A DNA stretch of 64,000 nucleotides from Kiritimatiellia bacterium (GTDB lineage: Bacteria; Verrucomicrobiota; Kiritimatiellia; CAIQIC01; Lenti-01): positions 1,471 to 65,470 of the forward strand of contig JAXGNL010000009.1 of the NCBI GenBank assembly GCA_040768005.1, written 5' to 3'. The notes under the pieces are model-generated. The model did not search any database, was not told the origin of the DNA, and saw only the letters and a program-made list of their open reading frames with translations. The position numbers and the translations under genes are program-made. Below, in pieces: positions 2,118-61,097 of this stretch (positions are counted from its first letter, which is position 1; each line of letters opens with the position of its first letter).

Positions 2118-3149
2118 TTATCGTCCGGGTTTCTTGAGGAATGGCCGGGGCCGGGGCGACGGGGCGGCCGAGGGCGCGGTAAGGGCCCGGGTGCAGCGCG
2201 CAGTCGGCGGCCTCTTCGTCCACGCAGGGCTTGCCGGGATAGAGCTGGTAGTCGCGGCGGAACGGTTGGGGTGGCGTTGCTAGCGAAGACGTTGGAGCCG
2301 CATCGGAGCGCGCGGTCGCGCCCGTCGGGAAACAGCGCATCGAAGGCGGTCGTGCGGGCGTCGGGGACAGGCCAGGCGCAGGACGGCGATGGCGCGGAAA
2401 ACAGGTCGGGATCGCCGGCGTAGGCGTTGGACTCGTTTTCGCGGGGTGCCGGGGCAGGGAATGAAGGGGCCGATGCCGATCATGTCGAAATCGAACTCCC
2501 GGCAAAGGAGGATGTTGCCGGCGAGGGTGTCGGGGGTTTCGCCGGGCAGGCCGATCATGAAGCCGCCGCCGGTCTGCACGCCCAGCGCCTGCAGGTCGCG
2601 CAGGCAGCGCAGGCGGTCGGCCAGCGTGCTGCCGGGATGCAGGCGGGCAAAGAGGTCCGGATCGGAGGTTTCGAAGCGCAGCAGGTAGCGATCCATGCCC
2701 GCATCGCGCCAGCGGGCATAGACGTCGCGCGGGCGGTTGCCGACGGACAGCGTGATGGCCAGCGCCGGGAATTCGGTCTTGATCCGCCGCAGCAGGGCGG
2801 CAAGATCGTCATCGGCCGGGCCGGGGGTTTCGCCGGACTGCAAGACGACCGTGCCGGCGGTTCCGGCGGCGGCAATGCCGCGGACGGCGGCGAGAATCTC
2901 GTCAGGCGTCATCCGGTAGCGGGCGGGGAGGGGGTTGGAGGCGCGGATGCCGCAGTAGAGGCAGTCGTTGGCGCAGGCATTGGAAAACTCCAGGATGGCG
3001 CGGACGGGGACGGCATCGCCGCAATGCGCCCGGCGCACGGCGTCGGCCCGGGCAAACAGCGCGTCCTGCGCCGGGCCCCGGGCGGCGAGCAGACGCCGCC
3101 ATTCCGCGCGGGATCCGGATTTTCCATGGTGTGGAAAAATGTTTTCCAT
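2118..3149 (-). pseudogene. hydE: radical SAM enzyme, HydE-like ([FeFe]-hydrogenase maturase family), 3' third split over three frames as read
   Basis: ILEFSNACANDCLYCGIRASNPLPARYRMTPDEI and VVLQSGE match the HydE/BioB-type CX3CX2C region. After GPFIPCPGTP the homologous sequence continues in other frames (ENESNAYAGDPDL / FRAIAVLRLACP / DARTTAFDALFPDGRDRALRCGSNVFASNATP / QPFRRDYQLYPGKPCVDEEAADC). The 3' end and the start codon are uncertain; the start lies inside a repeat. Confidence 0.6.
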
Positions 3150-3192
3150 AGCGTGGAAAACTACCACAAAAATTTTCCATGGCGTGGAAAAT
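3119..3192. repeat. triple-palindrome element, copy 1 (three TTTTCCAYRGYGTGGAAAA units)
   Basis: 19-nt palindromic units at 3120-3138, 3142-3160 and 3173-3191. Centre spacing is 22 and 31 bp, identical to copy 2 at 27133-27204. Confidence 0.85.
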
Positions 3193-3228
3193 CCGGATTT
3201 TCGAGGGGGAGGAGCGCCGCAACCCGCG

Positions 3229-3774
3229 TCAGGTTCGGCGGGCCGAACCGAGGCGGGGCAGCCAGCGCAGGGCGTTGCGAAGCTGCGCGGCTTCGGCGGC
3301 GGCGACGGCCTGGAGGCGGCCGAGCAGCTCGAGATAGCGCTCCAGGACGCGGCGGGCGTCGTCGCCGGCTTCCTTGTGGGAGAACAGCCCGCGGGGGCGG
3401 GCTTCGAAGTCGAGCTGCGGCTGCAGGATGCGGGCCTTGAATTCCGGGCCGAGGTCCTGATTGGTCAGCAGAAGGCGGCGGTCGGAGTGGCGCACGCGCG
3501 TGCATTCGTCGAGATACCACGTGGGCGAGCCGGTGGCATCCAGGTGCAGGAGCTGCAACAGATGCTTTTCCGTCCGCCAGAGGTCGAGCAGGTCCTTTTC
3601 CGCGACGCCCAGCAGGGTCAGGTGGACGATTTTGCGCAGCAGGGCGAAGTAGGCGGGGGAGTAGGCGGCGCCCTCCAGCACGGGAAGGTCCATGCGCTTT
3701 TGCAGGCCCAGCAGATAGACCGCCGGCCGGTGGAGGGCCTTGGCCATTTCGCCCAGCGTCATGCCCGCGGCCAT
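3229..3774 (-). CDS. hypothetical protein, possible N-terminal HTH
   Basis: 181-aa ORF. MTLGEMAKALHRPAVYLLGLQKRMDL resembles a MerR-like HTH. No firm family assignment. Confidence 0.55.
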   Translation of the reverse strand: MAAGMTLGEMAKALHRPAVYLLGLQKRMDLPVLEGAAYSPAYFALLRKIVHLTLLGVAEKDLLDLWRTEKHLLQLLHLDATGSPTWYLDECTRVRHSDRRLLLTNQDLGPEFKARILQPQLDFEARPRGLFSHKEAGDDARRVLERYLELLGRLQAVAAAEAAQLRNALRWLPRLGSARRT

Positions 3775-4641: not shown

Positions 4642-4704
4642 CCGGTTTTTGAAACGGTATAGTTATTGCAATATGTATACATATTGCAATATGTATAAAA
4701 CCGG
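4642..4704. repeat. AT-rich palindromic element, copy 1
   Basis: CCGGTTTT...AAAACCGG arms enclose TATAGTTATTGCAATATGTATACATATTGCAATATGTATA. This includes the perfect 24-bp palindrome TTGCAATATGTATACATATTGCAA at 4666-4689. Related copy at 26092-26130. Confidence 0.8.
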
Positions 4705-12499: not shown

Positions 12500-12597
12500 T
12501 TCAAGGGGCTTTCAATATCCAATGTCCAACAAGGAATTTTCAATGTCCAAGGGATGGAAAGTTTCCATTCTGAATCCTGAATTCTGAATCCTGACTC

Positions 12598-12939
12598 CTA
12601 TACCGTTAGGGCGATGACGAGCATGAGGGCCATGACGCCGAGGAGCCAGGCGACGTAATCGGAGGGGATGCCGGTGTGAAAGGGGACGAGTCGGCTGTAG
12701 TAGGCCTTCATGGCCTCGGTGAATCCCCAGTAGAGGTTGGAGGCGGGGATGTGGCCGCCGGCGTTTTCGGGTTCTTCGTTGCCGGAGATGAACGGCTTGA
12801 GGGCGTCGCCGCTGCGGTTGTCGGGGCGTCCGCGGGAGCGGACGAGCCAGGCGACGCCGAAGGCGACAGCGAAGCCGACGAGCCAGAGGAGGGGATTCCA
12901 GGCGCCGGCGCCGGTTTGCAGGGTCCAGGGGATATCCAT
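12598..12939 (-). CDS. mbhI: Mbh small membrane subunit (MbhI position)
   Basis: 113 aa with two TM helices. Sits between the MrpD-like and NuoB-like genes, as in Pyrococcus mbh. Assignment is by synteny. Confidence 0.6.
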   Translation of the reverse strand: MDIPWTLQTGAGAWNPLLWLVGFAVAFGVAWLVRSRGRPDNRSGDALKPFISGNEEPENAGGHIPASNLYWGFTEAMKAYYSRLVPFHTGIPSDYVAWLLGVMALMLVIALTV

Positions 12940-22022: not shown

Positions 22023-22438
22023 GATCAGCCCTCCTGCGTTGGCGTTGTCGTCTCTTCTATCCGGACTATATCGCATCCGGCCCGGGCGGACAAGGGCGGC
22101 TTCGGAGGAACAACCGGGGGAACAGCCAGGCAGAAAAACAGGAAACACCGGAACACAGGAGAACGGCCGGGGGAGGAAAAACTACGAAAGGCGCGAATAG
22201 AGGGAGGGAAAGGCAGGGGAGTATTGCAGCAGGAAGACAGGAAACACAGGACAACAGGATGACAGGATGTTTAGGATGGGAAACGGGGGTTCCGCGGACC
22301 CCGGACCCGGAATATATGGAATGATGGAATGGAGGACCCTTTCGCCTGCCCCCCTTCTGTCCCCTGACCCCTGTCCCCTGTTCCACCGACCTCGGACCGC
22401 GGACCGCGGGGCTTGCGGTTGGCGGGTTTCGGGGTAGG

Positions 22439-23047
22439 TTGGGAGGCATGAAAACCATGATGGTGCATCCCAGTTGGCGAGTATGGATCCTGGGGGCGGT
22501 CCTGGCGGGGGCGCGGGCCGCGGGCGCGGCGGAAGGAGCGGAGCCGGTGCAGAGCATCCATGAATTCACGATGACGGACATTGACGGCCGGGAGGTGGCG
22601 CTGTCGGACTACCGGGGCCGGGTGCTGCTGGTGGTGAACGTGGCGAGCCGGTGCGGGTTCACTCGGCAGTATGCGGGGCTGGAGAAGCTGTACCAGGCCA
22701 ACCAAGACCGCGGATTCGCCGTGCTGGGATTTCCCGCCAACAACTTCATGGGGCAGGAGCCGGGGACGGAGGCCGAGATCAAGAGCTTCTGCACGCTGAC
22801 CTACGGCGTGACGTTTCCGATGTTTGCCAAGATCTCCGTGAAGGGCAAAACCATCCATCCGCTCTATGCCTGGTTGACGGATAAGAAACTCCACCCGGAG
22901 CATGGCGGGGCCATTTCGTGGAACTTCAACAAATTCCTGATCGGGAAGGACGGGCGGGTGCTGGGGCGCTACGGCAGCCGCACGGAGCCGGACGATCCGG
23001 AACTCGCGGCGGCGATCGAAACGGCGCTTTCCGCGCCCGTCCCCTGA
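22439..23047 (+). CDS. glutathione peroxidase (Cys type), secreted
   Basis: LLVVNVASRCGFT, LGFPANNFMGQEPG, WNFNKFLIGKDG. N-terminal signal-like segment. Confidence 0.9.
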   Translation: MGGMKTMMVHPSWRVWILGAVLAGARAAGAAEGAEPVQSIHEFTMTDIDGREVALSDYRGRVLLVVNVASRCGFTRQYAGLEKLYQANQDRGFAVLGFPANNFMGQEPGTEAEIKSFCTLTYGVTFPMFAKISVKGKTIHPLYAWLTDKKLHPEHGGAISWNFNKFLIGKDGRVLGRYGSRTEPDDPELAAAIETALSAPVP

Positions 23048-23175
23048 GTGCAGACCGGCAGAGGCCGGCGCCGGACGCCAGCGGGTGAGCGGCGTTGAGC
23101 TTGTGCGCGGCCCGGAACCGCGACGCCCGGGCTTGACTGGGACGCAGGGCATGATAGTTTCGGCTCCGATAAATG

Positions 23176-23280
23176 GTCGCTAGGGGTGTCCTCGAGAAAG
23201 AGGGCTGAGAGTTCCCGTTGGGCGGGATAACCCTTGGAACCTGTTGGATCATTCCAGCGCAGGGACAGCGGATCGCTCGA
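23176..23280 (+). promoter_or_regulatory. TPP (THI-box) riboswitch
   Basis: GGGGTG...CTGAGA...ACCCTTGGAACCTGTTGGATCATTCCAGCGCAGGGA matches the conserved THI-box core. Lies directly upstream of cytX-thiM-thiE-thiD. Confidence 0.85.
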
Positions 23281-23366
23281 AAGAAGCCGTGGTTTCTCCG
23301 ATGGAACCGCGGCTTTGGCATGCCGTGGCGGCAGGCTCCCCGGCGCACCGGAAAGGAACCGGAGAC

Positions 23367-25442: not shown

Positions 25443-26096
25443 ATGGCCGCTGCGGATTACTCCCTGTATCTCGTCACGGACCGCGCGCTGGCGCGGGGGC
25501 GGCCGACGGCGGAGATTGTGCGGCAGGCGGTGCAGGGCGGGGTGACCTGCGTCCAGCTCCGGGAAAAGTCCTGCGGCACGCGGGAGTTCCTGGAGGAAGC
25601 CCGCACGGTGAAAGCGGTTCTGGCGGGCACCGGCGTGCCGCTGATCATCAACGACCGGGTGGACGTGGCGCTGGCGGCGGGAGCGGACGGCGTCCATCTG
25701 GGCCAGGACGACATGCCGCTGGCGGAGGCCCGGCGGATGGGACCGCCGGGGTGGATCATCGGGATTTCGGCGGAATCCGTGGCCGATGCGGTGCAGGCGG
25801 AACGGGACGGCGCGGATTATGTCGGCGCGAGCCCGGTGTTCGCCACGCCGACCAAGACCGACACGGCGCCGCCGCTGGGCCTGGCGGGGCTTCGGGCGGT
25901 TTGCGCTGCCGTCAAGATCCCGGTGGTGGCCATCGGCGGCCTTCATGCGGACAACGCGCACGACGTGGTTCGCGCCGGTGCGGCGGGCCTTGCCGTGGTG
26001 TCGGCCATCGTGGCGGCGGAGTCTCCGCGCACCGCCGCGGCGGAGTTGCGGCGGAGCATTCAAGGCATCCGGGAGCCCGGAAAGGAAGCTCTATAG
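25443..26096 (+). CDS. thiE: thiamine-phosphate synthase
   Basis: 217 aa. LYLVTDR..., VQLREK..., INDRVDVALA, GVHLGQDD, SPVFATPTK. Confidence 0.9.
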   Translation: MAAADYSLYLVTDRALARGRPTAEIVRQAVQGGVTCVQLREKSCGTREFLEEARTVKAVLAGTGVPLIINDRVDVALAAGADGVHLGQDDMPLAEARRMGPPGWIIGISAESVADAVQAERDGADYVGASPVFATPTKTDTAPPLGLAGLRAVCAAVKIPVVAIGGLHADNAHDVVRAGAAGLAVVSAIVAAESPRTAAAELRRSIQGIREPGKEAL

Positions 26097-26130
26097 TTAT
26101 TGCAATATGGATACATATGCAATAACTATA
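26092..26130. repeat. AT-rich palindromic element, copy 2
   Basis: TATAGTTATTGCAATATGGATACATATGCAATAACTATA with 13-nt perfect arms. Overlaps the thiE stop codon. Shares TATAGTTATTGCAATATG.ATACATAT.GCAATA with copy 1. Confidence 0.8.
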
Positions 26131-26172
26131 CAGGATCAAATCATGGTAGACGGCAGGCAGGGAGAGGGCGGC

Positions 26173-26988
26173 ATGAGTGAGAAAGCGTATCGGCGGGTGT
26201 TGACGATTGCGGGATCGGACTGCGGGGGCGGGGCGGGGATCCAGGCGGATCTGAAGACCTTCGCGGCGAACGGATGCTACGGGATGTGCGTGATCACGGC
26301 GCTGACGGCGCAGAACACACAGGGGGTGACGGGAATTCATCCGGTGCCGGTGGAGTTCGTGGAGCGGCAGCTGGATGCGGTGCTGGGGGACATCGGCGCG
26401 GATGCGGTGAAAATCGGCATGCTGTACTCGGCGGAGCTGATCGCGGCGGTGGCGGGGAAGCTGCGCGCGTACGGCGTCCAACGGATCGTGGCGGATCCGG
26501 TGATGGTGGCGCAGAGCGGAGACAAGCTGCTGCAGGATGACGCGGTGGAGGCGTTGAAAACGCATCTGTTTCCGCTGGCGGAAATCATCACGCCCAATCT
26601 GCCGGAAGCGGCGGTGCTGCTGGGCCGGGAGGTGGCCGGCGCGGCGGACATGGAAACCGCCGCGGCGGATTTGCTGCAATGGGGCAGCCGGCATGTCCTG
26701 GTGAAAGGGGGGCACCTGGAGGCTGACGGAAGCGAGGATGTCCTGGTGTCGGCCGGGAGCCCCGGGGCGGAGCGCTTCGGGGACGAGCGGATTCAAACGC
26801 GGAACACGCACGGGACGGGCTGCACGCTGTCGTCGGCCATTGCGGCTCATCTGGCGAAAGGCGAAGGCGTGACGGAGGCGGTCGGCCATGCCAAGGAATA
26901 CATCCGCCGGGCCATTCGGGCCGGCGCGGGATATCGCATCGGGCACGGGCACGGGCCGGTGCATCATTTCTGGCCGTTCTGGGAGTAA
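26173..26988 (+). CDS. thiD: hydroxymethylpyrimidine/phosphomethylpyrimidine kinase
   Basis: ATG 26173 after [30 protein letters not shown]..., ...[14 protein letters not shown]... Confidence 0.9.
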
Positions 26989-27132
26989 GGAGGGAGGATG
27001 AGGCCTGCGGTCCGAGGGGGGACAGGGGGAGCTGGATCAGCCAAGCAGGAAAACAGGAAACCCAGGAAAGCAGGAATGGGGAGGGGACAGGGGACAGGGG
27101 GCAGGAGACAGGAGACAGGCCGGTTTTCCGGA

Positions 27133-27204
27133 TTTTCCACGGTGTGGAAAACTTTTTTCCATGGCGTGGAAAACCGGCGGAAATTTTTTCCATGGCGTGG
27201 AAAA
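27133..27204. repeat. triple-palindrome element, copy 2
   Basis: Units at 27133-27151, 27155-27173 and 27186-27204, spacing 22/31 bp as in copy 1. Lies between the convergent thiD and AI-2E transporter genes. Confidence 0.85.
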
Positions 27205-27239
27205 TCCGGAACCGGCCGAAGACGGGGGGTGGACGGGGA

Positions 27240-28358
27240 TCAGGGGACGGGGGCGGGGGTGTGGTGGCGGGAGGGGACGAGGTTGCGCCGGTACCAGGCG
27301 AGGAGCAGGCAGGTCATGGGCAGGGCGATCAGGAGGCCGAGCGCGCCGAGCAGCCGGCCCCAGATGCTGAGCGACAGCAGGATGGCGACGGGGTTGAGCC
27401 CGAGGCTGCGGCCGATGATGCGCGGCACGAGCACCATGTCCTGGAGGGTTTGCACCACGGCGAAAACCAGTCCGCACAGGGCCAGGGCGATCCAGACATT
27501 GCCGCCGGAGGCGAGGGCGCCGAGGGCGGCCAGCAGGAAGGCGGGCACCGCCCCGACGATCTGCAGATAGGGGACCATGTTGAGCAGGCCGATGAACAGA
27601 CCCAGCAGTATGCCCATGGGCAGGCCGATGAGGGCGAAGCCGGCGGCGAACAGGATTCCGACCAGGGCCGCAACAGCGGCCTGCCCGCGGAAGTAGCGGC
27701 GCATGCCTTCGGCGAATTCATGGAGGAAATCGAGGGTGGCGGCGCGGTAGTCTTCGGGGATCATGTTGGGCCAGGCGGCCTGGAAGTGGTCGTAGTCCGC
27801 CAGGAGGAAGACGAGATAGAACAGCACGATGACGAGGCCGACGGTGCCGATGACGAGGCTGGCGGCGCCGGAGAGGATTTTCCAGGCGCCGGGCACGGCT
27901 TTCTGGAGGGCGGTTTCGGCCCATTGCCAGAGGCGCTCGGGGGTGAAGAATTCCTGGAAGTCCGGTTCGGAGAGACGCTGGGTGAGGCCGGTCCAGAGGT
28001 CCTGCGGGAGGCGTTCCTGGAGCCAGGCGGGCAGCTGCAGGTTGGCGGCCTGCCGCAGCAGGCCGCCGAGGGCGGCGAATTCCCGGGCCAGCACGGGGAC
28101 CAGTCCCACCACGAGGGCGGTGGCGGCCGCCAGCACCAGCAGCAGGCTCAGCGCGACGGCGGTCTTGCGGCCGCGGACCCGGCGCTGGATGGCGCAGACC
28201 AGCGGATTCATCATGTAGGCCAGCAGGACGGCGACGGCGAAGGGCGTCAGGACTCCCTGCAGAAGGCCCAGCAGGTGGATAAGGCCGGCAATGACGGCGG
28301 CGCCGATGGCCAGGCGGATGACGCGGTCGAACGTGAATTCGCGGTCGAGCAGTTTCAT
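27240..28358 (-). CDS. AI-2E family (PerM-like) transporter
   Basis: ATG 28358: MKLLDREFTFDRVIRLAIGAAVIAGL... Polytopic, ...LNMVPYLQIVGAVPA... ATGA overlap with the ATPase stop. Confidence 0.8.
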   Translation of the reverse strand: MKLLDREFTFDRVIRLAIGAAVIAGLIHLLGLLQGVLTPFAVAVLLAYMMNPLVCAIQRRVRGRKTAVALSLLLVLAAATALVVGLVPVLAREFAALGGLLRQAANLQLPAWLQERLPQDLWTGLTQRLSEPDFQEFFTPERLWQWAETALQKAVPGAWKILSGAASLVIGTVGLVIVLFYLVFLLADYDHFQAAWPNMIPEDYRAATLDFLHEFAEGMRRYFRGQAAVAALVGILFAAGFALIGLPMGILLGLFIGLLNMVPYLQIVGAVPAFLLAALGALASGGNVWIALALCGLVFAVVQTLQDMVLVPRIIGRSLGLNPVAILLSLSIWGRLLGALGLLIALPMTCLLLAWYRRNLVPSRHHTPAPVP

Positions 28359-41533: not shown

Positions 41534-41545
41534 AAAAGCCGGTTG

Positions 41546-41996
41546 TGTCCACAGATGTCACAGATGGACACAGAGTAGAGAAGGAGGACCAGATGAAGAA
41601 AGAAGACCCGGATCCGCAGACCTATGCCATTATCGGTGCGGCCATGGAGGTTCACCGTGACTTGGGGCATGGTTTTCTTGAAGCCGTTTAGCAGGAGGCC
41701 CTGGCGATTGAGTTTGGCTTGCGGGGGATCCCTTTTGAACGGGAGAAGGAAATCGAGGTGGTGTTCAAAGGGGTCATATTGAAAACCGGGTATCGGGCGG
41801 ATTTTCTATGCTATGGGGAGATTCCCGTTGAGACCAAGGCGATCCAGGCGCTGACCGGCAACGACGAAGCCCAGATCATCAACTATCTGAAGGGAACCAA
41901 AACACACCGCGGGCTGTTGTTAAATTTCGGGGCACCACGCCTGGAGTACTTGCGACGGGTCTTTTAATCTGTGCCCATCTGTGACATCTGTGGACA
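41546..41996. mobile_element. 451-bp unit: GxxExxY gene bounded by 28-bp inverted repeats
   Basis: Left TGTCCACAGATGTCACAGATGGACACAG (41546-41573). The right arm (41969-41996), reverse-complemented, is TGTCCACAGATGTCACAGATGGGCACAG, 27/28 identical. Confidence 0.6.
41593..41967 (+). pseudogene. GxxExxY family (PD-(D/E)XK-like) protein with in-frame TAG
   Basis: AAGGAGG then ATG 41593: MKKEDPDPQTYAIIGAAMEVHRDLGHGFLEAV-TAG-QEALAIEFGLRGIPFEREKEIEVVFKG...RADFLCYGEIPVETKA...AQIINYLKGTKTHRGLLLNFG. The TAG (41689-41691) replaces the signature Tyr. Confidence 0.8.
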
Positions 41997-42020
41997 GAGT
42001 CGGCTCCGGTTGTGGACGGC

Positions 42021-45311: not shown

Positions 45312-45713
45312 TCATTGTTTGTTCAACAGGATCCCGTCGGCAGTGTAGACGAGTATATTGGTTGCGGTAACTCTGTAGTGAAGATTCAAGGTCTTCGTCA
45401 CATAATCAAGCGCATCGCGCATTGTGATTCTCCGCAGATTCAGAGTGAGAGGAGGAAGATTGGAGCATGCCGGTAGAGAGCGATCTAATATGACTGGCCG
45501 GGGAACAGGCGGAGCGTTGATATCCATCAGGCCAATGGGCCTCATGTCGTCAGCTTCGGGCATCATGATTATTCCGGAAATCATGAATTCCAGCACATCC
45601 GTGGCATTCCCGTCACGGAATATGCATGTGGGGATAATCATGGTGTCCAGCCGGTCGCCGATTGTCCCAGATTGTGCATTTGTATATGCGAAAGCGGACG
45701 TCCATGCCGCCAA
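45312..45713 (-). CDS. hypothetical protein fragment with PVC-type IIP..F...DVL.F / LTLNL..I...DAL.Y repeat domain, probably 5'-truncated
   Basis: ...DRLDTMIIPTCIFRDGNATDVLEFM...LTLNLRRITMRDALDYVTKTLNLHYRVTATNILVYT. No signal peptide. The ORF starts at the edge of the intron remnant. Confidence 0.5.
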   Translation of the reverse strand: MAAWTSAFAYTNAQSGTIGDRLDTMIIPTCIFRDGNATDVLEFMISGIIMMPEADDMRPIGLMDINAPPVPRPVILDRSLPACSNLPPLTLNLRRITMRDALDYVTKTLNLHYRVTATNILVYTADGILLNKQ

Positions 45714-45723
45714 GAACAGAAAT

Positions 45724-46165
45724 GCGATATGAAGGCCGGGTCACGGGGCGAGGTGGCACAACACACGGAAGCCCTTGATCTAGTGGACAAGGAAAATCGC
45801 GCGGTGGCGCAGCGGAAGTTCACGTTCTTATCTGGGGAGATTCCCAGGAGGAAATGCCTTGGGAAGTCCGTAGCGGCCATAGTAGCGCTGAAGCCCGTGT
45901 AAGCGGAGGGAGCGAAGGGCCGAACCGGTCGGCTGGCACTCGACCGCGGGATGGACATTGGAGCTGTTGACGCCCGATGGGGCCAGGTCTTCAATGAGTG
46001 CCGTTCCGGGGGAAGCATGGAGTGCCTGGGGCGGGGTCTTCGGATTCAGCCGTGCGGTTGGGGTTCATCCCTGATCGTCTGACCGGAACCGCCGGATGCG
46101 GAGCCGCATGTCCGGTGGTGTGGGAGTTGGGGCCGGCTCATTAGGGCCGGCTCCGGCGACCCGAT
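45724..46165 (+). mobile_element. group II intron remnant (ORF-less, 5'-truncated)
   Basis: GGCCGGGTCACGGGG..GGTGGCACAACACACGGAAGCCC...GTTCACGTTCTTATCTGGGGAGAT...CATAGTAGC aligns with 48023-48190 of the full intron. The 3' end CCCGAT|TCGGC parallels CCTCGAT|TCGCA of the full copy. Confidence 0.6.
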
Positions 46166-46178
46166 TCGGCGCCTTCAT

Positions 46179-46481
46179 CTACGCCATGGCAAAGGCTTGT
46201 ACTTCTTGCTCCAGCCGATCACCGAGCTTGTCTTGTTCCTGTTCCAGGTCAAAATGCGCCTGTAGGTTCAGCCAGAACTGCGGCGAGATGCCGAAATACC
46301 GGCCAAGCCGCAGGGCGGTATCCGCAGTCACGCTACGGGTGCCATGCACGATCTCATTGATTCGCCGTGGCGGGACGCTGATGTCGCGCGACAGGCGATA
46401 CTGGGAAATACCCATGGGGGCCAGAAATTCCTCCATGAGAATCTCGCCGGGATGGACGGGGGGCATTTTGTTGGTTCTCAT
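46179..46481 (-). CDS. higA: HigA antitoxin (XRE HTH)
   Basis: ATG 46481: MRTNKMPPVHPGEILMEEFLAPMGISQYRLSRDISVPPRRINEIVHGTRSVTADTALRLGRYFGISPQFWLNLQ. Confidence 0.9.
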   Translation of the reverse strand: MRTNKMPPVHPGEILMEEFLAPMGISQYRLSRDISVPPRRINEIVHGTRSVTADTALRLGRYFGISPQFWLNLQAHFDLEQEQDKLGDRLEQEVQAFAMA

Positions 46482-46491
46482 GTCTTTTCTC

Positions 46492-46771
46492 CTAATGATA
46501 ATCCACAATCTCAACATCATGCGCGGCCTTCTCTCCATCGAAAGCAAATGCGCCATTGGTCATTGATCCGAATGCTATGCTGTCCCGCTCGGTTGCCGGC
46601 CAGAGCTTCCAGCCGGTTCCCAGGCGGTACCCGCAGAGAGATCAAATCCGGCGCCGCATCAATCATCCAGAGTTTCCGCAAGGCCGTCCGCTGAATGTCA
46701 TGGGGGAGCTTTCGCACAACCTCCCGCCGGAATATCTTTTCAGCCTCCGGGCTTCTGAATGACTTGATCAT
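46492..46771 (-). pseudogene. higB: HigB toxin (RelE/ParE superfamily), last 10 codons in another frame as read
   Basis: MIKSFRSPEAEKIFRRE...LRVPPGNRLEALAGNRAGQHSIRINDQWRICFRWREG then TGA. The expected ending AHDVEIVDYH-TAG is in the +1 frame and finishes just before the higA RBS. Confidence 0.8.
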
Positions 46772-46828
46772 GGGCAGAACATAACGCGCCGCGGTAATAT
46801 CGTCAAGCGTTACTATTCAGTTTCTTTC

Positions 46829-46893
46829 GGTGAACGTCAGCGTTCTCCGGACGGCGCACTTTGTGCGACGTACGGAGCAACGCCTTGTTCGCC
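46829..46893 (-). repeat. attC (cassette 12)
   Basis: GGTGAACGTCAGCGTTCTCCGGACGGCGCACTTTGTGCGACGTACGGAGCAACGCCTTGTTCGCC. Confidence 0.85.
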
Positions 46894-46897
46894 GACT

Positions 46898-47239
46898 TTA
46901 TTCATATGATGTGAATAGCGCTTGGATCTGCCCTTCGCCGTTGTATACCACGTCTAGGGGGCAGTTCGTATCCTTTAGGATATGATATTGAATCATCCTT
47001 TCATCTTCTTTGAGCGAGTAACTATGTCCCCATAAGGATTGGGAGGGGGATATAGGCTTACTGTTATAGCTCCATATCATTCCCTCAAGCTCGGTCTGCG
47101 TTTGAGCCTTCATCCACCGGGTTTCATTCATAAGGCAGAAGGCATAATGTCCGCTATCAGTCTTAAATAGCCATAAGCACAATGCGACAGAGATGCCGAC
47201 TATCGCCAATAGGGTATATTTAATAATCGGCGCTTTCAT
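46898..47239 (-). CDS. cassette ORF, membrane-anchored protein of unknown function
   Basis: 113 aa. MKAPIIKYTLLAIVGISVALCLWLF anchor. Fills the cassette between attC 12 and attC 11. Confidence 0.6.
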   Translation of the reverse strand: MKAPIIKYTLLAIVGISVALCLWLFKTDSGHYAFCLMNETRWMKAQTQTELEGMIWSYNSKPISPSQSLWGHSYSLKEDERMIQYHILKDTNCPLDVVYNGEGQIQALFTSYE

Positions 47240-47246
47240 TTCTTAG

Positions 47247-47311
47247 TTCCAACGTCAGCGTTCTCCGGACGGCGCACCTTGTGCGACGTACGGAGCAACG
47301 CCTTGTTGGGA
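47247..47311 (-). repeat. attC (cassette 11)
   Basis: TTCCAACGTCAGCGTTCTCCGGACGGCGCACCTTGTGCGACGTACGGAGCAACGCCTTGTTGGGA. The core differs from attC 12 at one position. Confidence 0.85.
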
Positions 47312-47776
47312 TTCTTTTCTTTCATAAAGGAATTGGATGCGATGCGATTCAATATCGTCAGCCAATGTAAACCACTCACCGATGGGGAGTGGTAGCTCGG
47401 TTTCGGTTGAAAATGAAGTTAACACGGGTTGCATCAGGACCAGTTCTCCAATAGTGTAGGGAACCCAGTCCGATAGTTTATGACAGTCAATCTTAAGTAT
47501 GCACCGCACGCTCATTTCAGCTTCTTCAATCACATCAACCGAAATATAATAACCTAGTCCGGTGCGCTCGAATTTAGTCGGACGCCCATCGTTTTCGTAT
47601 TCAGTGGGGTACTCGAGAAAGAAATCATATGGGCGTTCGCCCGTCTTTCCGTTGATGGGAACGGTAAAAACCAAGTTAGTTGTTTCGGGGAATATGACAC
47701 TAAGTTTGTCGGCGCCAAAGGCCGTTAGCGAAATAAGGGCTGTAGTGAAAAGGGCAACGTAATATCTTGTAGTCAT
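47255..47776 (-). CDS. cassette ORF, secreted protein of unknown function
   Basis: 173 aa. Signal peptide MTTRYYVALFTTALISLTAFGA. The 3' end runs into attC 11. Confidence 0.6.
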   Translation of the reverse strand: MTTRYYVALFTTALISLTAFGADKLSVIFPETTNLVFTVPINGKTGERPYDFFLEYPTEYENDGRPTKFERTGLGYYISVDVIEEAEMSVRCILKIDCHKLSDWVPYTIGELVLMQPVLTSFSTETELPLPIGEWFTLADDIESHRIQFLYERKESQQGVAPYVAQGAPSGER

Positions 47777-47790
47777 AGTTCTTCTCTCTT

Positions 47791-47844
47791 AATCACGGGT
47801 CAGGGGACCCGACACCTTGTGGCGGGTACCCTGGACCCGCTTGT
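47791..47844 (-). repeat. attC (cassette 10), interrupted by group II intron
   Basis: AATCACGGGTCAGGGGACCCGACACCTTGTGGCGGGTACCCTGGACCCGCTTGT, completed by TCGCA at 49645-49649. This gives GCTTGTTCGCA, as in the other attC right boxes. The left box is degenerate (CAC instead of AAC). Confidence 0.7.
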
Positions 47845-49644
47845 GTACGCCCAGCATGGGCGTGAAGCGTATGGGGTTGAAGTCCCCTGTACATGGAATC
47901 AACCTACCGAAAGGAAGGGAAAAGTACGAGCCAAAAGCAAGGGCGGTCGGGTAACCGGCGGTCTGGAGGAAGCTGGCGGCGAAGTCACGGGCCGATGAAC
48001 AAGAATTGCATAGCAGGCCGAGTGGGCCGGGTGAGTGGGCACAAGACCACGAAACCCGCTGGTTCAGCCCATACGGTAAATGCGGCGGCCGCGGGACGGA
48101 CGTTCACGCTCTTATCTGGGGAGATCCCGTCCCGACCTCTCAAGAGTCGGGACCGGGAAGTCAGCCGAGGGCATAGTAGCCCAACGCCGGAGGCAATGCT
48201 CCGGACATGGTGAAGGCCCGAACATCGGAACCGGGGAGGACGCCCGTCGCTCCCGCCGCCTTGATGAACCCGAATGGGGGAGAGCGCGGCGGCAACACGG
48301 CGGCCCCGTCTGCCCCGCAACCCACCGACCTGCTCGAACGGGTCCTGGATCGCGGCAACCTCAACCGGGCCTGGCGCCGGGTCAAAGCCAACGGCGGCGC
48401 ACCCGGCATCGACGGCATGACCGTCGAAGCCTTCCCGGAATGGGCGCGCGTGAACTGGGCTCCGATCCGGCAGGCGATCCTGACGGGAACCTACCGCCCT
48501 TCGCCGGTGCGGCGGGTGGAGATTCCCAAGGCCTCTGGAGGCAAACGCCCGCTGGGCATCCCGACCGTCACGGACCGGGTGATCCAGCAGGGCATTCTCC
48601 AGGTGCTCGGCCCGATGTGGGACCCCGGATTCTCGGAGTCCAGCTTCGGGTTCCGTCCCGGACGCAACGCCCACGGAGCTGTCAAGCAGGTCCAGGGGCT
48701 GATCCGCACCGGCCGCCGCTGGGCGGTCGATATCGACCTGCGGAAGTTCTTCGACACCGTGGACCACCGGATCGTCATGAGCCGGTTGGCCCGCAAGATC
48801 GAAGGCCAGCCGCTGTTGAGGCTGATCGGCCGCTACCTGCGGGCGGGCGTCATGATCGACGGACACATCGAACCCACGCGGGAGGGCGTGCCCCAGGGCG
48901 GGCCGCTCTCGCCCCTGCTGGCCAACATCGTTCTGGACGACCTCGACCGGATGCTGGATCAACGCGGTCATGCGTTCGCGCGGTACGCGGACGACTTCGT
49001 GATCCTGGTCCGGAGCGAACGGGCGGCCCAACGCGTGATGGCCGGCGTCTGCACCTTTCTGGAACGCAGGCTCAAGCTCCGCATCCATACCGGCAAAAGC
49101 CGCATCGTGCGCGGTTCGCAACTCGATTACCTCGGGTTCTGCTTCGCACGCGGCCGCATCCGGCTCACCCACGAGGCCCTGCTGAACTTCAAGCGGGAAC
49201 TCCGGTGGTGGACCGGGCGGCACTGGTTGAAGTCGATGGACGTGCGCCTTGCCAAGCTGCGGTCCTACGTGCAGGGGTGGATGAACTACTACGGGCTCTC
49301 CGGCGTCTACCGCGACTGGCCGGGTCTGGACGACTGGCTGCGGCGGCGGATTCGGATGTGCTACTGGGTGATGTGGAAACGTCCCCGGCCCCGCATCCGC
49401 AACCTGCGCGCCCTCGGCGTCCCGATCCGCCAGGCGGTCGGCCTCGGCCGCAGCAGTCTCGGATCGTGGAAGTGCGCCCGACTGCTTGGGTTCGCGATGT
49501 CAAAGAGCTGGCTGGAAAAGCAGGGTCTCATCTGCCTCGCAGACGACTGGTGAGCGGCGCTGGTACTGGGTCCGGCGAACGCCGGTGAATCTGCAACGCG
49601 TACGGTGGCAGGGAGGAGCTAATCACTCCCTTACCCACCTCGAT
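47845..49644 (+). mobile_element. group II intron, class C attC-targeting type (1800 nt)
   Basis: Starts GTACG directly after an attC stem-loop ending in TTGT. Ends ...CCTCGAT before TCGCA. Encodes an RT/maturase without an endonuclease domain. Orientation is antisense to the cassettes. Confidence 0.8.
48207..49553 (+). CDS. group II intron reverse transcriptase/maturase
   Basis: RVEIPKASGGKRPLGIPTVTDRVIQQ, FGFRPGRNAHGAV, DIDLRKFFDTVDH, GVPQGGPLSPLLANIVL, ARYADDFVILV, maturase RSYVQGWMNYYG. No HNH/En domain. The start could instead be ATG 48264. Confidence 0.9.
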   Translation: MVKARTSEPGRTPVAPAALMNPNGGERGGNTAAPSAPQPTDLLERVLDRGNLNRAWRRVKANGGAPGIDGMTVEAFPEWARVNWAPIRQAILTGTYRPSPVRRVEIPKASGGKRPLGIPTVTDRVIQQGILQVLGPMWDPGFSESSFGFRPGRNAHGAVKQVQGLIRTGRRWAVDIDLRKFFDTVDHRIVMSRLARKIEGQPLLRLIGRYLRAGVMIDGHIEPTREGVPQGGPLSPLLANIVLDDLDRMLDQRGHAFARYADDFVILVRSERAAQRVMAGVCTFLERRLKLRIHTGKSRIVRGSQLDYLGFCFARGRIRLTHEALLNFKRELRWWTGRHWLKSMDVRLAKLRSYVQGWMNYYGLSGVYRDWPGLDDWLRRRIRMCYWVMWKRPRPRIRNLRALGVPIRQAVGLGRSSLGSWKCARLLGFAMSKSWLEKQGLICLADDW

Positions 49645-49748
49645 TCGCATTATTATTTTGGCTGTTCGGCTGTTCCATCGTTCCCTTGTCCGGGCTGAAA
49701 TCGCTTTGCTTCCTCACCATCCGCCGGCATCACTCGGAATCATTATTT

Positions 49749-49812
49749 TCAGAACGTCAGCGTTCTGGGACAGCGCACTTTGTGCGCTGTACCCAGCAAC
49801 GCCGTGTTCTGT
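49749..49812 (-). repeat. attC (cassette 9)
   Basis: TCAGAACGTCAGCGTTCTGGGACAGCGCACTTTGTGCGCTGTACCCAGCAACGCCGTGTTCTGT. Confidence 0.85.
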
Positions 49813-50242
49813 GTCATTGTTTTATGATCCTCATCAGTTCTTCTGGGCCAAACCGCTCCCGCATGAGGTGGATAATTCCAAAGCGCCTGGCAGAATCCAT
49901 TCGGAGGGATAACCCCCAGCCCCTTTATCTGTTTTTGTCGGGGGGCCAACATCGTTTCAAAGTGACGCTGGAAATCGGCGTATGCAGGCAATATCGGCTT
50001 CTGCTCTGAAGTGTTTTAAAGAACTCAAGTTCCGCAAGCACGTCAGGCCTGTGTAGATGGAAGCCGAGAACACAATGGAGTCCTCGTAGCGGTTCGCATT
50101 TGAGGGTGTAATACGTGTTTGACCTTTTTGAGCGCGTAGCCATCAAAAAGGTCTTCCAGTTCCAGATTGCTTATCCGCCAAGGAATGAACTTTAGCGGGG
50201 CGGGTAAGTTGAAATCCTGATGTTAAGTCCATTATCTCTTTC
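49813..50242 (-). pseudogene. cassette 9 coding remnant, fragmented over three frames
   Basis: Pieces read on the minus strand: MDLTSGFQLTRPAKVH..., KFIPWRISNLELEDLFDGYALKKVKHVLHPQ, LRGLHCVLGFHLHRPDVLAELEFFKTLQ, KPILPAYADFQRHFETMLAPRQKQIKGLGVIPPNGFCQALWNY, IHLMRERFGPEELMRIIKQ-stop just before the attC. Confidence 0.4.
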
Positions 50243-50301
50243 ACAGAACGTCAGTGGTGAGGGCGCGAGTTTACGAGCGTACTTCCACCACCTTGTTGGG
50301 G
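50243..50301 (-). repeat. attC (cassette 8)
   Basis: ACAGAACGTCAGTGGTGAGGGCGCGAGTTTACGAGCGTACTTCCACCACCTTGTTGGGG. Near-identical to attC 1. Confidence 0.85.
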
Positions 50302-50304
50302 CTG

Positions 50305-50547
50305 TTATTCGGTTTCATCTTTGAATTCTTTGCACCATTTGGCGGCGTAATAGGCGCTAATAGGCAGGATCACCAAGAAGTGGATTGCGGCAATCAGTCC
50401 TTTCCAGAACTGTGGCGCCGTTCCGGGCAGTAACTCGGCCGGCGAGATGGTGCTGCAGCCAAAACAGCAGCATGGCCAGATAGAGAACAGCTGCCCGACA
50501 ATACGCCAGCCGCCAGCTCAAGCTATTTTCAATTTCTGAATATTCAT
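50305..50547 (-). pseudogene. cassette 8 ORF, small membrane protein with in-frame TGA at codon 10
   Basis: ATG 50547: MNIQKLKIA-TGA-AGGWRIVGQLFSIWPCCCFGCSTISPAELLPGTAPQFWKGLIAAIHFLVILPISAYYAAKWCKEFKDETE-TAA. The stop lies 3 nt before attC 8. The TGA is at 50518-50520. Confidence 0.5.
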
Positions 50548-50557
50548 TTTCTCGTGG

Positions 50558-50616
50558 CCCCAACGTCAGCGTCAGACGCGCCACTGTGGCGCGTATCCAG
50601 CAGCGCATTGTTGTGC
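50558..50616 (-). repeat. attC (cassette 7)
   Basis: CCCCAACGTCAGCGTCAGACGCGCCACTGTGGCGCGTATCCAGCAGCGCATTGTTGTGC. Related to attC 2. Confidence 0.85.
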
Positions 50617-50624
50617 CTTTTGTA

Positions 50625-51251
50625 TTATTCATGCACGGGGATATTGTCTGATACGAAGTGAAGAATTCGACCTTTTTCGCGAATATATCTTCCAATTCTT
50701 TCCAAAATGCGCTTTGGGCCGAGCGGACTTGTCGTTAGGGTCCTTTAATCTCGCAAAAGAACCAATCTGAAAGATCTGGTTTTAGTAAACAAATAAATCC
50801 GGGGTCCTCTGTAGCCATGGGCCTTCTTGGCAAACTCCACATTCGATCAAACAAAGGCGAAGAAACGCACTGATGGAAGATTGACGCTTTACGAGGGTGT
50901 CGCTCATTGGCGTTTTAATGTCGTGTATTTTTCGACCAGACTCAAATACCCTCGCTCATGCCACCATACATGGCCGCGGATGCTTCATAAAAGTGGTGAT
51001 GGCGTTGATTAAGGAATATTTCAAGGTCCCGCCGCCAGTATCTTAGAAATAAGCATGGGGTCATGAGAAATATTGAAGTCTTTGGAGTATTTCACCTGGA
51101 GCGATACCGCGCGTGTCTGCCGTTTATTTGTAACCAAGAAGTCGATACCCGTGTCCTTAGAGGGTATCCATACAGATAAATCGCGGAAATGTGCTTCAAT
51201 ATATGAGCCGACTAAGTACTCGCCAGCATGAACGGTAAATAGTGTCTTCAT
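50625..51251 (-). pseudogene. cassette 7 ORF, PD-(D/E)XK nuclease-like protein, fragmented as read
   Basis: MKTLFTVHAGEYLVGSYIEAHFRDLSVWIPSKDTGIDFLVTNKRQTRAVSLQVKYS has a D...(S/E)xQVK arrangement. It continues in shifted frames (WRRDLEIFLNQRHHHFYEASAAMYGGMSEG / VFESGRKIHDIKTPMSDTLVKRQ... / IGRYIREKGRILHFVSDNIPVHE-TAA). The first and last pieces are in the same frame. Confidence 0.45.
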
Positions 51252-51264
51252 AATTGTCTTTCTC

Positions 51265-51378
51265 GGTGAACGTCAGGGTTCAGGCTCGACCCACGGCTGT
51301 ACGGTGTAGGTGTGTAGCGAGCGGAAGGGTGTGCAGTGCGGCAGCTTGTGGGTCGTAGTCTGGAACCCCTTGTTCGAC
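51265..51378 (-). repeat. attC (cassette 6), long form (114 nt)
   Basis: GGTGAACGTCAGGGTTCAGGCTCGACCCACGGCTG...CAGCTTGTGGGTCGTAGTCTGGAACCCCTTGTTCGAC. Confidence 0.75.
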
Positions 51379-51563
51379 GATTTTTCATCCTCAAAATGCG
51401 AAAAATGGCCTGAAAATGGCCCAAAATGGGCTGTAGAGGCTATTTTGGGCACTATTTTCATGTTTTCGGGCCGTCGCGGAGGCTTGTAGCCGTCCGCTTG
51501 ACGATTTCTCCTCAATATTGGCCTGCTGTCGCCCATAGCGCCATCATTTTCATCTACTTCTTT

Positions 51564-51641
51564 GTCGAACGCCCACCGTGACCCTCGTTTCACGCCGCGT
51601 CCGCGCGGTGTGAAACGTAGCGGTCCACGGTGTTGTTCGCA
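51564..51641 (-). repeat. attC (cassette 5)
   Basis: GTCGAACGCCCACCGTGACCCTCGTTTCACGCCGCGTCCGCGCGGTGTGAAACGTAGCGGTCCACGGTGTTGTTCGCA. Confidence 0.8.
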
Positions 51642-51644
51642 CAG

Positions 51645-52412
51645 CTACTCCTGCTTCGCCAGTCCGTCCAGGCCCGCCAGAAAAGGCGACTTCACGATCT
51701 GCACGACAACAGGAGCGGTGACGGCGACAACTGCGTCGAGCGAGTAGCGAAATGAGACCTTCTGCTTGAACGTTTCCGCCTTGTCGTATCCCTTGTCCAT
51801 CTCTCCTATGGTCTCCAACTGCTTGAGCGATCCCTTATTGTATGTCATGAGGGGTTTGAGGTCTTTGGACAGCAGGACGAAATCCATTGGCATAAGCACG
51901 CTGGCGAATTGCGCCCCAGCAAACATCGTTGTGAGGGAGGGGCGTGGATCATTGACGGCCAGCACGAGCAGCATATCTGCTGCTTTAAACTGATCCAACC
52001 CCGCTCGCACAGTCTGACCGGACAGAAGTGCTGTCGTATCCAGCTTGATGCTTCCACCAATCGCCTCGACCTGTGCAACAATGCTCGCAACGATCAGCTG
52101 ACTGATTGAGTTCGTCGGAACCACAGGTCTGTAGGACAACCACTCCGTGAGATTCGTTCTGGCGTAGTCGGTCCCCATCTTTGGGTTCAGGTATTCCTTT
52201 GGCTCACCATCAACAATCGAGAAACTCTGGTAGTTGATGACGAGTACCCCCACCGATCTCGGTTGGTGCAGTTTCCCGAAATCAGTGGCCTGCCATTCTG
52301 CCTTCTCTGGTGCCTCGTCGGTGGCGACTTTCACCTTTGCCTCATCCGCAAGCCCTAGACTAGCCACCGCTAACACACCACACGCCCAAACCCATGCTGC
52401 CTTTGTCCTCAT
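51645..52412 (-). CDS. cassette 5 ORF, secreted protein of unknown function
   Basis: Intact ORF of about 255 aa. MRTKAAWVWACGVLAVASLGLA signal peptide. No recognisable domain. Confidence 0.65.
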   Translation of the reverse strand: MRTKAAWVWACGVLAVASLGLADEAKVKVATDEAPEKAEWQATDFGKLHQPRSVGVLVINYQSFSIVDGEPKEYLNPKMGTDYARTNLTEWLSYRPVVPTNSISQLIVASIVAQVEAIGGSIKLDTTALLSGQTVRAGLDQFKAADMLLVLAVNDPRPSLTTMFAGAQFASVLMPMDFVLLSKDLKPLMTYNKGSLKQLETIGEMDKGYDKAETFKQKVSFRYSLDAVVAVTAPVVVQIVKSPFLAGLDGLAKQE

Positions 52413-52432
52413 CTTCTCTGCTCCTTTCTCCA

Positions 52433-52493
52433 TGCGAACGTCCGGCCTCTGCGGCGACGCGATAGCGACGTACGCAGCAGGCCGTTGTTGGCC
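52433..52493 (-). repeat. attC (cassette 4)
   Basis: TGCGAACGTCCGGCCTCTGCGGCGACGCGATAGCGACGTACGCAGCAGGCCGTTGTTGGCC. Confidence 0.8.
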
Positions 52494-53534: not shown

Positions 53535-53555
53535 CTCTTTTCTCCTTCTGCTGGT

Positions 53556-53620
53556 GACCAACGTCAGGGCTCACGCTCAGCGCACGTTAGTGCGCTGTAG
53601 TGTGCAGCCCATGGTTCGCA
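53556..53620 (-). repeat. attC (cassette 3)
   Basis: GACCAACGTCAGGGCTCACGCTCAGCGCACGTTAGTGCGCTGTAGTGTGCAGCCCATGGTTCGCA. Confidence 0.8.
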
Positions 53621-53712
53621 TCCTTCTCTTTATGGGTCAGTAGAAACCTTCCAGTATTTCTGTGTAACTAATATTAGTGTGTATGAATTGATGGCTGGAG
53701 CGTCAGGCATCT

Positions 53713-54583: not shown

Positions 54584-54602
54584 CTTTCGTTCTCCTTTCG
54601 CT

Positions 54603-54661
54603 GCCTAACGTCAGCGTTTGGGACGCGCCACTTGTGGCGTACCAGCAGCGCATTGTTCGCT
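54603..54661 (-). repeat. attC (cassette 2)
   Basis: GCCTAACGTCAGCGTTTGGGACGCGCCACTTGTGGCGTACCAGCAGCGCATTGTTCGCT. In cassette orientation the R' box is the canonical GTTAGGC. Confidence 0.85.
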
Positions 54662-55526: not shown

Positions 55527-55584
55527 AGCGAACGTCAGTGGTGAGGGGCGAGTTTACGAGCGTACCTTCACCACCTTGTTCGGC
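55527..55584 (-). repeat. attC (cassette 1)
   Basis: AGCGAACGTCAGTGGTGAGGGGCGAGTTTACGAGCGTACCTTCACCACCTTGTTCGGC. Confidence 0.85.
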
Positions 55585-55598
55585 TTCATTCATTTTCT

Positions 55599-55790: not shown

Positions 55791-55800
55791 ATTATTTTAT

Positions 55801-55870
55801 GCCGAACAGCTCATCGGCCCAAGTCAGACTTGAAAAGCCGAAGTGGTTGATCGGAGAATAGCGAGAGGGC
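55801..55870 (-). other. attI-like region with first cassette junction
   Basis: Minus strand reads ...GAGCTGTTCGGCATAAAATAATATG. GTTCGGC (plus 55801-55807) has the same form as the attC boxes and marks the start of cassette 1. The extent of attI is not determinable from sequence. Confidence 0.4.
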
Positions 55871-60979: not shown

Positions 60980-60984
60980 TGAGA

Positions 60985-61096: not shown

Positions 61097-61097
61097 G

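Follow-up and report, generated by a model that had tools for sequence, protein, structure and literature searches.

Short palindromic units that are mostly extragenic, occur singly or in clusters and are built from fixed modules and spacers make up the repetitive extragenic palindromes (REP) and bacterial interspersed mosaic elements (BIME) of enterobacteria and Pseudomonas, which are associated with RAYT proteins, number dozens to hundreds per genome, vary between relatives and are bound by host proteins in E. coli. The Rickettsia palindromic elements (RPE) are single units of 100–150 bp that are commonly intragenic and tolerated in surface loops. Conserved palindromes of another kind, namely the binding sites of Noc (NBS), SlmA (SBS), MatP (matS) and ParB (parS), are present at tens to about 100 per chromosome, in either orientation and next to unrelated genes; the NBS half-site, ATTTCCC, resembles the TTTTCCA arm described below. 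Clusters of three to eight DnaA-box-like 9-mers are found outside oriC (datA, DARS1/2 and the DnaA-box clusters, DBCs, of B. subtilis), and palindromes bound by dimers and placed at integral helical turns are known from NrdR boxes (about 31–32 bp apart), ComK boxes, Lrp arrays and the res site of Tn3/gamma-delta resolvase, in which three dimer sites have a fixed geometry. Here, we describe a family of arrays of 19-bp palindromes that has features in common with each of these systems, starting from two copies in a 64,000-nucleotide stretch of contig JAXGNL010000009.1 of a Kiritimatiellia bacterium (hereinafter, the window).

The window contains two 84-nt elements, 87% identical in a gap-free comparison, each of which consists of three palindromes TTTTCCA-N5-TGGAAAA enclosed by TCCGGA hexamers, with start-to-start spacings of 22 and then 31 bp that are the same in both copies:

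Element copy 1: 3114..3197, no strand; 84 nt, three 19-bp palindromes between TCCGGA ends
Site 1a: 3120..3138; TTTTCCATGGTGTGGAAAA (minus strand: TTTTCCACACCATGGAAAA), exact match, TGGTG centre
Site 1b: 3142..3160; TTTTCCATAGCGTGGAAAA, TAGCG centre; holds the ATG of the HydE-like gene (3149-3147, minus strand)
Site 1c: 3173..3191; TTTTCCATGGCGTGGAAAA, TGGCG centre
Element copy 2: 27127..27210, no strand; 84 nt, architecture class B22R31R
Site 2a: 27133..27151; TTTTCCACGGTGTGGAAAA, CGGTG centre
Site 2b: 27155..27173; TTTTCCATGGCGTGGAAAA, TGGCG centre
Site 2c: 27186..27204; TTTTCCATGGCGTGGAAAA, TGGCG centre

Apart from these six exact sites, the window contains one chance-like match with two mismatches, at 16994; 0.07 sites are expected in the shuffled window, and none of the 100 shuffles reached seven. 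The first-pass annotation of this DNA had reported triple palindromes with 22- and 31-bp spacing in AT-rich islands, with TTTTCCATGGCGTGGAAAA as the commonest form of the site, flanked by CCGGA on the left and TCCGGA on the right. The geometry is real, TTTTCCATGGCGTGGAAAA accounts for three of the six sites, and the site blocks have a G+C content of 37.5% and 44.4%, compared to 64.3% for the window; of the flanks, the right one was given correctly, whereas the left one is also a full TCCGGA, the earlier coordinates being 1–5 nt too narrow. The window's own population is represented by three metagenome contigs (L128–L130) with 99.3–99.9% identity, in which copy 2 is intact except for one single-nucleotide polymorphism in a centre; one of these contigs (L129) ends within the copy 2 array.

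Among the arrays of a family that extends over the clade, the layout of the two window elements (three sites, 22 + 31 bp) is the most frequent multi-site one. One genome per species was scanned with TTTTCCAYRGYGTGGAAAA as the query, which yielded at least 118 loci; about 107 of them come from at least 30 metagenome-assembled genomes (MAGs) that carry the label Kiritimatiellia, Verrucomicrobiota or Lentisphaerae, and a single MAG has up to 11 of them. The remaining loci are single sites in unrelated taxa and match the chance expectation. In a centre-free search of metagenomes for site pairs spaced by 22 bp, at least 119 further loci were obtained, mostly from digesters, bioreactors and sludge. 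Copy numbers from both scans are lower bounds, and taxon names are the depositors' labels. With up to two arm mismatches allowed, the first set holds at least 375 sites and the second at least 543, about 900 overall, and shuffles of the first set contained no sites. Rather than being limited to two copies, the arrays are thus dispersed over at least 30 species-level MAGs and at least 119 metagenome contigs. One further array was found per 42–58 kb of flanking DNA and two per 64 kb in the window, that is, about one per 30–60 kb overall, which suggests, by extrapolation, some 60–120 arrays in a genome of 3–4 Mb.

The first-pass annotation did not recognise the palindromes as a described element, and our searches agree with this: neither the site sequences nor palindromes, repeats or motifs of Kiritimatiella are described in the searchable literature, the genome paper of K. 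glycovorans does not describe such repeats, and no Rfam 15 family matches either window copy at the gathering score. The family thus appears to be undescribed. In a scan of viral sequences, there were nine single matches, none with a phased array, and a phage or plasmid origin was rejected. Four of these nine matches belong to one small family of phage-like contigs (55% G+C; 98% identical copies in four samples; L119 5260-5354, with L122, L124 and L125 the same), in which paired TTTTCCACA boxes, in the forms TTTTCCACAGGCGATGTGGAAAA and TTTTCCACAGTGTGGAAAA, lie after the capsid gene, as convergent boxes 5 and 1 bp apart, before the next open reading frame (ORF).

The geometry of the arrays is rigid. 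The inward spacer is five nucleotides in all 284 exact sites, and the outward spacer is either three (65 cases) or 11–13 nucleotides (99 cases). Neighbouring sites start 22 bp (88 times) or 30–32 bp (122 times) apart in the genome loci, and 22 bp (169 times) or 30–32 bp (204 times) apart in the metagenome loci, which corresponds to two and three helical turns; other spacings are rare and are mostly due to an intervening decayed site. The number of sites per array varies from one to 11, with the 22 + 31 layout found in 41 of the 56 three-site arrays and B22R31R being the commonest multi-site architecture in both data sets. Units 31 bp apart are head-to-tail direct repeats (57 vs. 1).

The arms are strictly conserved: their invariance is 97% or more, and all 14 arm positions are perfect in roughly three quarters of the sites. 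Of 524 sites, 516 have G or C as the central base, the other centre positions varying by lineage, so that the consensus is TTTTCCA-NN-S-NN-TGGAAAA. When an arm pair is changed, it is seldom still able to pair (2 of 132 changed pairs are Watson-Crick and 18 of 132 are G-T); arm changes are therefore uncompensated, and it is the sequence that is conserved, not a hairpin. The TCCGGA hexamer is the most frequent one at the flanks in the relatives (27 of the 554 flanks) and also recurs within some spacers and, for this reason, belongs to one subfamily of the elements and is not a target duplication, the possibility that the first-pass annotation had proposed to check.

Two further sequence features accompany the arrays. 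A conserved 23-nt G+C hairpin module, TTTATCCCGCGTGGGCGGGAT, is inserted between sites, which are then 42–43 bp apart, in the largest arrays of at least three MAGs; the loci concerned (L002 2664-2800, L005 3547-3570, L078 562-585 and 730-752, L097 3143-3165) are not orthologous. The module is a second building block of mosaic arrays. In loci of two MAGs (CALMNW and JAKLIL; L011, L015, L019, L044 and L090), one arm of the site is replaced, giving TTTTACGTAGCGTGGAAAA, with an uncompensated change of CC to AC/GT; this variant is usually found in arrays at normal spacing. A reading of the outward palindrome TGGAAAA-WWW-TTTTCCA as Lrp-like, or feast/famine regulatory protein (FFRP)-like, was considered but set aside, single sites without the junction being common.

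Among the described systems, the arrays resemble REP/BIME in being short, mostly extragenic, modular, located between convergent as well as tandem genes and variable between relatives. However, their sites are A+T-rich 19-mers that lack GTAG/CTAC, no RAYT was found among the screened neighbours, the 31-bp units are direct repeats (57 vs. 1) rather than alternating, the arrays conserve sequence and not pairing, with arms identical over at least 30 species, and they are found at divergent promoters as often as chance predicts. The arrays resemble RPEs in that some palindromes lie in frame within genes, here TatD and a dihydroorotase-like enzyme, but differ in that the units are 19 bp long, are arranged in phased arrays and are intragenic in no more than 5% of the cases. 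The sites of Noc, SlmA, MatP and ParB are single and have another half-site spacing, in contrast to the phased multi-site arrays described here. Phased operator pairs and res sites belong to one operon or one element, whereas the arrays form a genome-wide set without a regulon theme. With respect to DnaA-box clusters, the CAC core is missing from a quarter of the sites, a genome has tens of arrays rather than a few, and the one oriC-type region captured (L154) uses boxes other than those of its array.

The genomic context of the arrays was assessed using gene calls from our own heuristic, which is based on G+C content by codon position. About 95% of the arrays are intergenic; 119 lie between tandem genes, 29 (17%) between divergent starts and 22 (13%) between convergent genes, which is roughly as expected for random placement in intergenic regions, with the background assumed rather than computed. 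Array polarity showed no bias relative to gene direction (16 vs. 25) and no relation to GC skew (p = 0.38); no polarity linked to replication or transcription was found. An origin or terminus of replication at the window copies was rejected, given that the cumulative GC skew rises through both copies with no switch; no dnaA or dnaN is present in the window or in the 118 genome loci listed. The neighbours of the arrays are unrelated housekeeping genes that show no functional theme (253 flanking genes, three bulk Pfam screens), and this, together with the 13% of convergent contexts, speaks against a local regulon or an autoregulated transcription factor.

The surroundings of the arrays were also screened for transposase genes. 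There is no transposase in the 25 most frequent Pfam families of the 253 flanking genes, lists that do not cover singletons, or among about 50 individually scanned neighbours, and the candidates for a transposase beside or between arrays (L039, L061, L060 and L042) proved to be ordinary genes; the position matrices of sites and flanks contain no GTAG/CTAC motif. The first-pass annotation had considered a small non-autonomous mobile element, i.e. a miniature inverted-repeat transposable element (MITE). In that form, the suggestion is not supported: the arrays have no defined length (1–11 units), TCCGGA is part of the element and not a duplication, no transposase was seen among the screened neighbours and many arrays are inherited at orthologous positions.

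Retention of the arrays at orthologous positions was observed repeatedly. Upstream of pheS, an array ends 17–23 nt before the ATG in four species, with intact arms and with centres, spacers and the number of sites varying. Copy 1 of the window is shared with locus L059 (flank 79% identical). Overall, arrays are found at matching orthologous positions in about 25 locus pairs, some with flanks only 65–70% identical, whereas random placement in about 3,000 intergenic regions would yield, by a rough estimate, about two such pairs; pheS, trpA, dsbD and a metallo-beta-lactamase (MBL)-fold gene recur as neighbours in the independent metagenome sample. Among 24 orthologous pairs, identity is 94% in the arms, 62% in the centres, 66% in the spacers and 70% in the flanks, in a comparison where repeats align with repeats and all loci had been selected for a perfect site. 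This divergence pattern points to selection at each locus.

Taken with the strict N5, the spacing by two or three turns and the invariant arms, these observations lead us to favour, at roughly even confidence, the explanation that a sequence-specific protein binds cooperatively, as dimers, along a single face of the DNA. Each 19-bp site would bind one dimer, with each monomer reading one TTTTCCA arm; given the spacing of neighbouring sites by two or three helical turns, the dimers would all be placed on one face of the DNA and could bind cooperatively. The resulting nucleoprotein platform would be small, would function in both orientations and would recur about every 30–60 kb through intergenic DNA; it is a candidate for a chromosome landmark, a nucleoid organiser or a boundary of transcription units. 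Protein binding, the dimeric state and the platform function are all inferred; the spacing and the invariant arms lend indirect support to the suggestion in the first-pass annotation that the fixed geometry reflects an array of sites for a dimeric protein. Where arrays abut gene starts (hydE, pheS, the MBL-fold gene and others), their sites extend into the −35/spacer region or the first codons and could modulate the promoter. In about eight loci, the end of a site is followed after 4–6 nt by a TAGGAT-type −10 element and, after another 6–7 nt, by the ATG; at this subset of arrays, leaderless-type promoters are predicted whose −35/spacer region is covered by the site. More generally, TTGCNG-N17-TAGGAT/TAGGTT promoters with only 6–7 nt before the ATG are frequent (window 22425-22452; L051, L057, L067, L080, L089, L090, L105 and L117), which suggests that leaderless mRNAs are common in the clade.

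Several observations weigh against a model in which the arrays are host binding sites and nothing else. The orthology evidence is biased, all loci in the comparison having been selected for a perfect site. Locus L027 has a two-site array where the window, with a flank 86.6% identical, has none, in intergenic DNA too diverged for the borders to be defined. A dihydroorotase-like gene contains in-frame arrays (four sites in L013, two in L103), as does TatD (L060), and others are located within ORFs of L054/L115, L158 and L189. Centres are identical more often within a genome than between genomes (17.4% vs. 8.0%); the spacer distance is likewise 5.3 within a genome vs. 6.5 between genomes. From the in-frame intragenic arrays, the gain and loss between relatives and the genome-specific flavours, it follows that a copying or homogenising process exists, beyond a pure host-site model. 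Furthermore, perfect arms in about three quarters of the sites are stricter than is usual for operators and typical of copied repeats, and no transcription factor or DNA-binding family is enriched among the 253 array-flanking genes. In their evolution, the arrays resemble long-lived REP/BIME-type repeats, being now and then copied to new places and homogenised within a genome. A bolder form of the binding-site explanation, which we regard as possible but doubtful, is a chromosome-marking system of a new type, in which a dedicated dimeric protein would assemble cooperatively on the 60–120 or so phased arrays of a genome. Selection would have held these arrays at fixed intergenic positions over long evolutionary times as nucleoid-organising landmarks or boundaries of transcription units, comparable to Noc, SlmA and MatP or to eukaryotic insulators, and a copying mechanism able to place them even in frame within genes would renew them.

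The same signs of turnover would be expected of a selfish REP/BIME- or RPE-like repeat whose palindromes are recognised by a mobilising enzyme (RAYT-like or of another kind) with its gene elsewhere in the genome, and whose effects on the host are no more than incidental. The near-identical arms everywhere, the mosaic of fixed modules, including the 23-nt GC-hairpin of at least three MAGs, the in-frame insertions in TatD and the dihydroorotase-like gene, the gain and loss between close relatives, the genome-specific centres and spacers and the breaking of assemblies at arrays (L129) are all compatible with such a repeat. It nevertheless appears unlikely when set against the perfect arms at orthologous sites whose centres, spacers and flanks are down to 62–70% identity, the stability of the arm sequence over genomes of 54–69% G+C, whereas REP sequences usually differ between species, and the lack of both a GTAG/CTAC motif and a transposase in the top 25 families of the 253 flanking genes or in the singly scanned neighbours.

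Less probable still is that the arrays are DnaA-box clusters that titrate or remodel DnaA, each 19-mer being two convergent boxes (TTTTCCACA-N-TGTGGAAAA). The resemblance is considerable: the half-site of the first set, TTTTCCAC[AG], fits TTWTNCACA at all nine positions, the half-site variant TTTTCCACA is the cyanobacterial DnaA box in Ori-Finder and DoriC, 450 such 9-mers lie inside sites compared to 20 isolated ones, and opposed boxes have a precedent in DARS, where two of the three boxes are oppositely oriented (PMC6868365). Dispersed, orientation-free intergenic arrays would also suit a titration system. However, about 26% of the sites in the centre-free sample depart from the box, mostly by an A at position 8 (TTTTCCAAT.., TTTTCCAAC..), and these A-centre sites (ATCAT, ACCAT, ACGAT) keep the same geometry as the CAC-type sites. 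The rigid inner spacing of five nucleotides is at odds with the binding of monomers to DnaA boxes, and the arrays show no variation at positions 3 and 5. At the dnaA-dnaN locus of L154, the only such locus captured and from a single genome, there is no 19-mer; the boxes are varied and non-palindromic (TTGTTCACG twice, TGTCCACA twice, TTATTCACA, TTGTTCACA and one TTTTCCACA), with the array 2.4 kb away, and no dnaA or dnaN adjoins the other 236 loci listed. DnaA may bind to the CAC-type sites but probably does not shape them. Putative oriC-type regions flank dnaA in L154 (3970-4250 and 5622-5960), with direct TGTGGACA repeats, two TTGTTCACG and TTATTCACA/TTGTTCACA; they could help define the DnaA box of the clade.

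An element acting in RNA, through hairpins that serve as bidirectional terminators or stabilisers of mRNA 3' ends, is very improbable. Whole elements do fold into long hairpins (−35 to −53 kcal/mol, z −5.7 to −8.6), a T-run follows each site of a 22-bp pair, the site at 27133-27151 is listed as terminator-like, and both window copies lie downstream of a stop codon. Such long hairpins, however, follow trivially from a repeated palindrome; a single site folds with only −5.6 kcal/mol, arm changes are compensated in just 2 of 132 cases, the arrays show no polarity relative to transcription, 17% of them are at divergent starts and some are inside ORFs, and no Rfam family matches. The first-pass annotation's view that this is not a simple terminator is supported on these grounds. 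Finally, an uptake-type DNA sequence maintained by molecular drive (biased uptake together with recombination) is hardly credible: although a perfect motif across species, at orthologous sites, occasionally in frame, orientation-free and homogeneous within genomes recalls the population signatures of DNA uptake sequences and uptake signal sequences (DUS/USS), namely conservation of the motif across species, orientation independence and within-genome homogeneity, one array per 30–60 kb or so is far below the frequency of known uptake sequences, about one per kb, and we know of no counterpart of the rigid multi-site geometry among DUS/USS.

In the window, the genes next to the two copies are as follows:

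HydE-like radical-SAM gene: 2280..3149, minus strand; Pfam, NCBIfam; about 10 first codons (MENIFPHHGK) encoded by sites 1b and 1a
TGGTAGTTT, extended −10-like motif: 3158..3166, minus strand; 12-nt spacer plus arm of site 1b; 8 nt upstream of the ATG
Upstream ORF of 181 aa: 3229..3774, minus strand; stop 32 nt before copy 1; no Pfam or NCBIfam family
thiD, phosphomethylpyrimidine kinase: 26143..26988, plus strand; 3' end toward copy 2
AI-2E family transporter: 27240..28358, minus strand; 3' end toward copy 2

Copy 1 lies between the two minus-strand genes, and the radical-SAM gene is named HydE-like because its score against TIGR03956, 216 bits, is under the cut-off of 254.6. An in-frame ATG (3149-3147) is located in the centre of the middle palindrome, site 1b. 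The element supplies the start codon of this gene, as the first-pass annotation had it: with this ATG, residue 13 of the protein aligns to position 12 of the HydE profile, and the L059 orthologue has, by sequence reading, the same in-frame ATG within the same palindrome. We predict that TGGTAGTTT is a leaderless-type promoter of the HydE-like gene; L059 has TGCTAGATT in the equivalent position. The convergent genes thiD and the AI-2E transporter end on either side of copy 2, a placement between convergent gene ends that had likewise been noted and is supported by Pfam and by independent gene calls on metagenome contigs of 99% identity.

Several other features were observed, some of them near copy 2. 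A thiamine pyrophosphate (TPP) riboswitch (23172-23283) precedes a transporter-thiM-thiE-thiD operon, with copy 2 at the 3' end of the operon. Another dispersed A+T-rich palindrome, TATAGTTATTGCAATATG..CATAT(T)GCAATA.., is present at 4660-4700 and 26092-26135 in two copies that are 89% complementary, one after an apparent gene end near 4.6 kb and one directly before the start of thiD; it is possibly a further clade-specific cis-element. Period-7 tandem repeats, namely (GGGACAG)n, (GAGGACA)n with up to 15.6 copies, (CCACCAA)n and (CTGAATC)n, occupy several intergenic regions (27049-27125, 60987-61094, 61845-61979, 22119-22267, 22345-22384, 58193-58219 and 12570-12599); one of these repeats abuts copy 2, and similar heptamer runs lie beside arrays in other MAGs (loci L011, L038 and L096).

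Elsewhere in the window, a low-G+C block (45668-57892; 50–54% vs. 65%) contains group II intron domains (45668-45826 and 47945-48218), a reverse transcriptase/maturase (48207-49553), 57-nt direct repeats (46833, 47251 and 49752) and a tyrosine integrase (56386-57369) beside a tRNA (57802-57892), and is probably an integrated island. At 41537-42005, inverted repeats of 41 nt (41537-41577 / 41965-42005) containing TGTCCACA-like motifs enclose a small gene of the PD-(D/E)XK type (PDDEXK_3, 'GxxExxY'), whose reading frame is interrupted by a stop at 41689-41691. GC skew on the plus strand is very strong (+0.1 to +0.29) at positions 1-36000 and 56000-62000, despite mostly minus-strand genes at 2–22 kb, where the coding strand is C-rich; it is about zero where genes are on the plus strand.

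Kiritimatiellia, abundant polysaccharide degraders of digesters, guts and sediments, are almost unexplored in their molecular genetics. On the practical side, the arrays break metagenome assemblies, as in L129, and can mislead start-codon calling, as in the HydE-like gene. The invariant arms, rigid phasing, class-level conservation and orthologous retention provide a very strong and simple handle that could lead to a new major DNA-binding protein, and a family that stands between a selfish repeat and a host cis-element bears on how dispersed repeats gain function.

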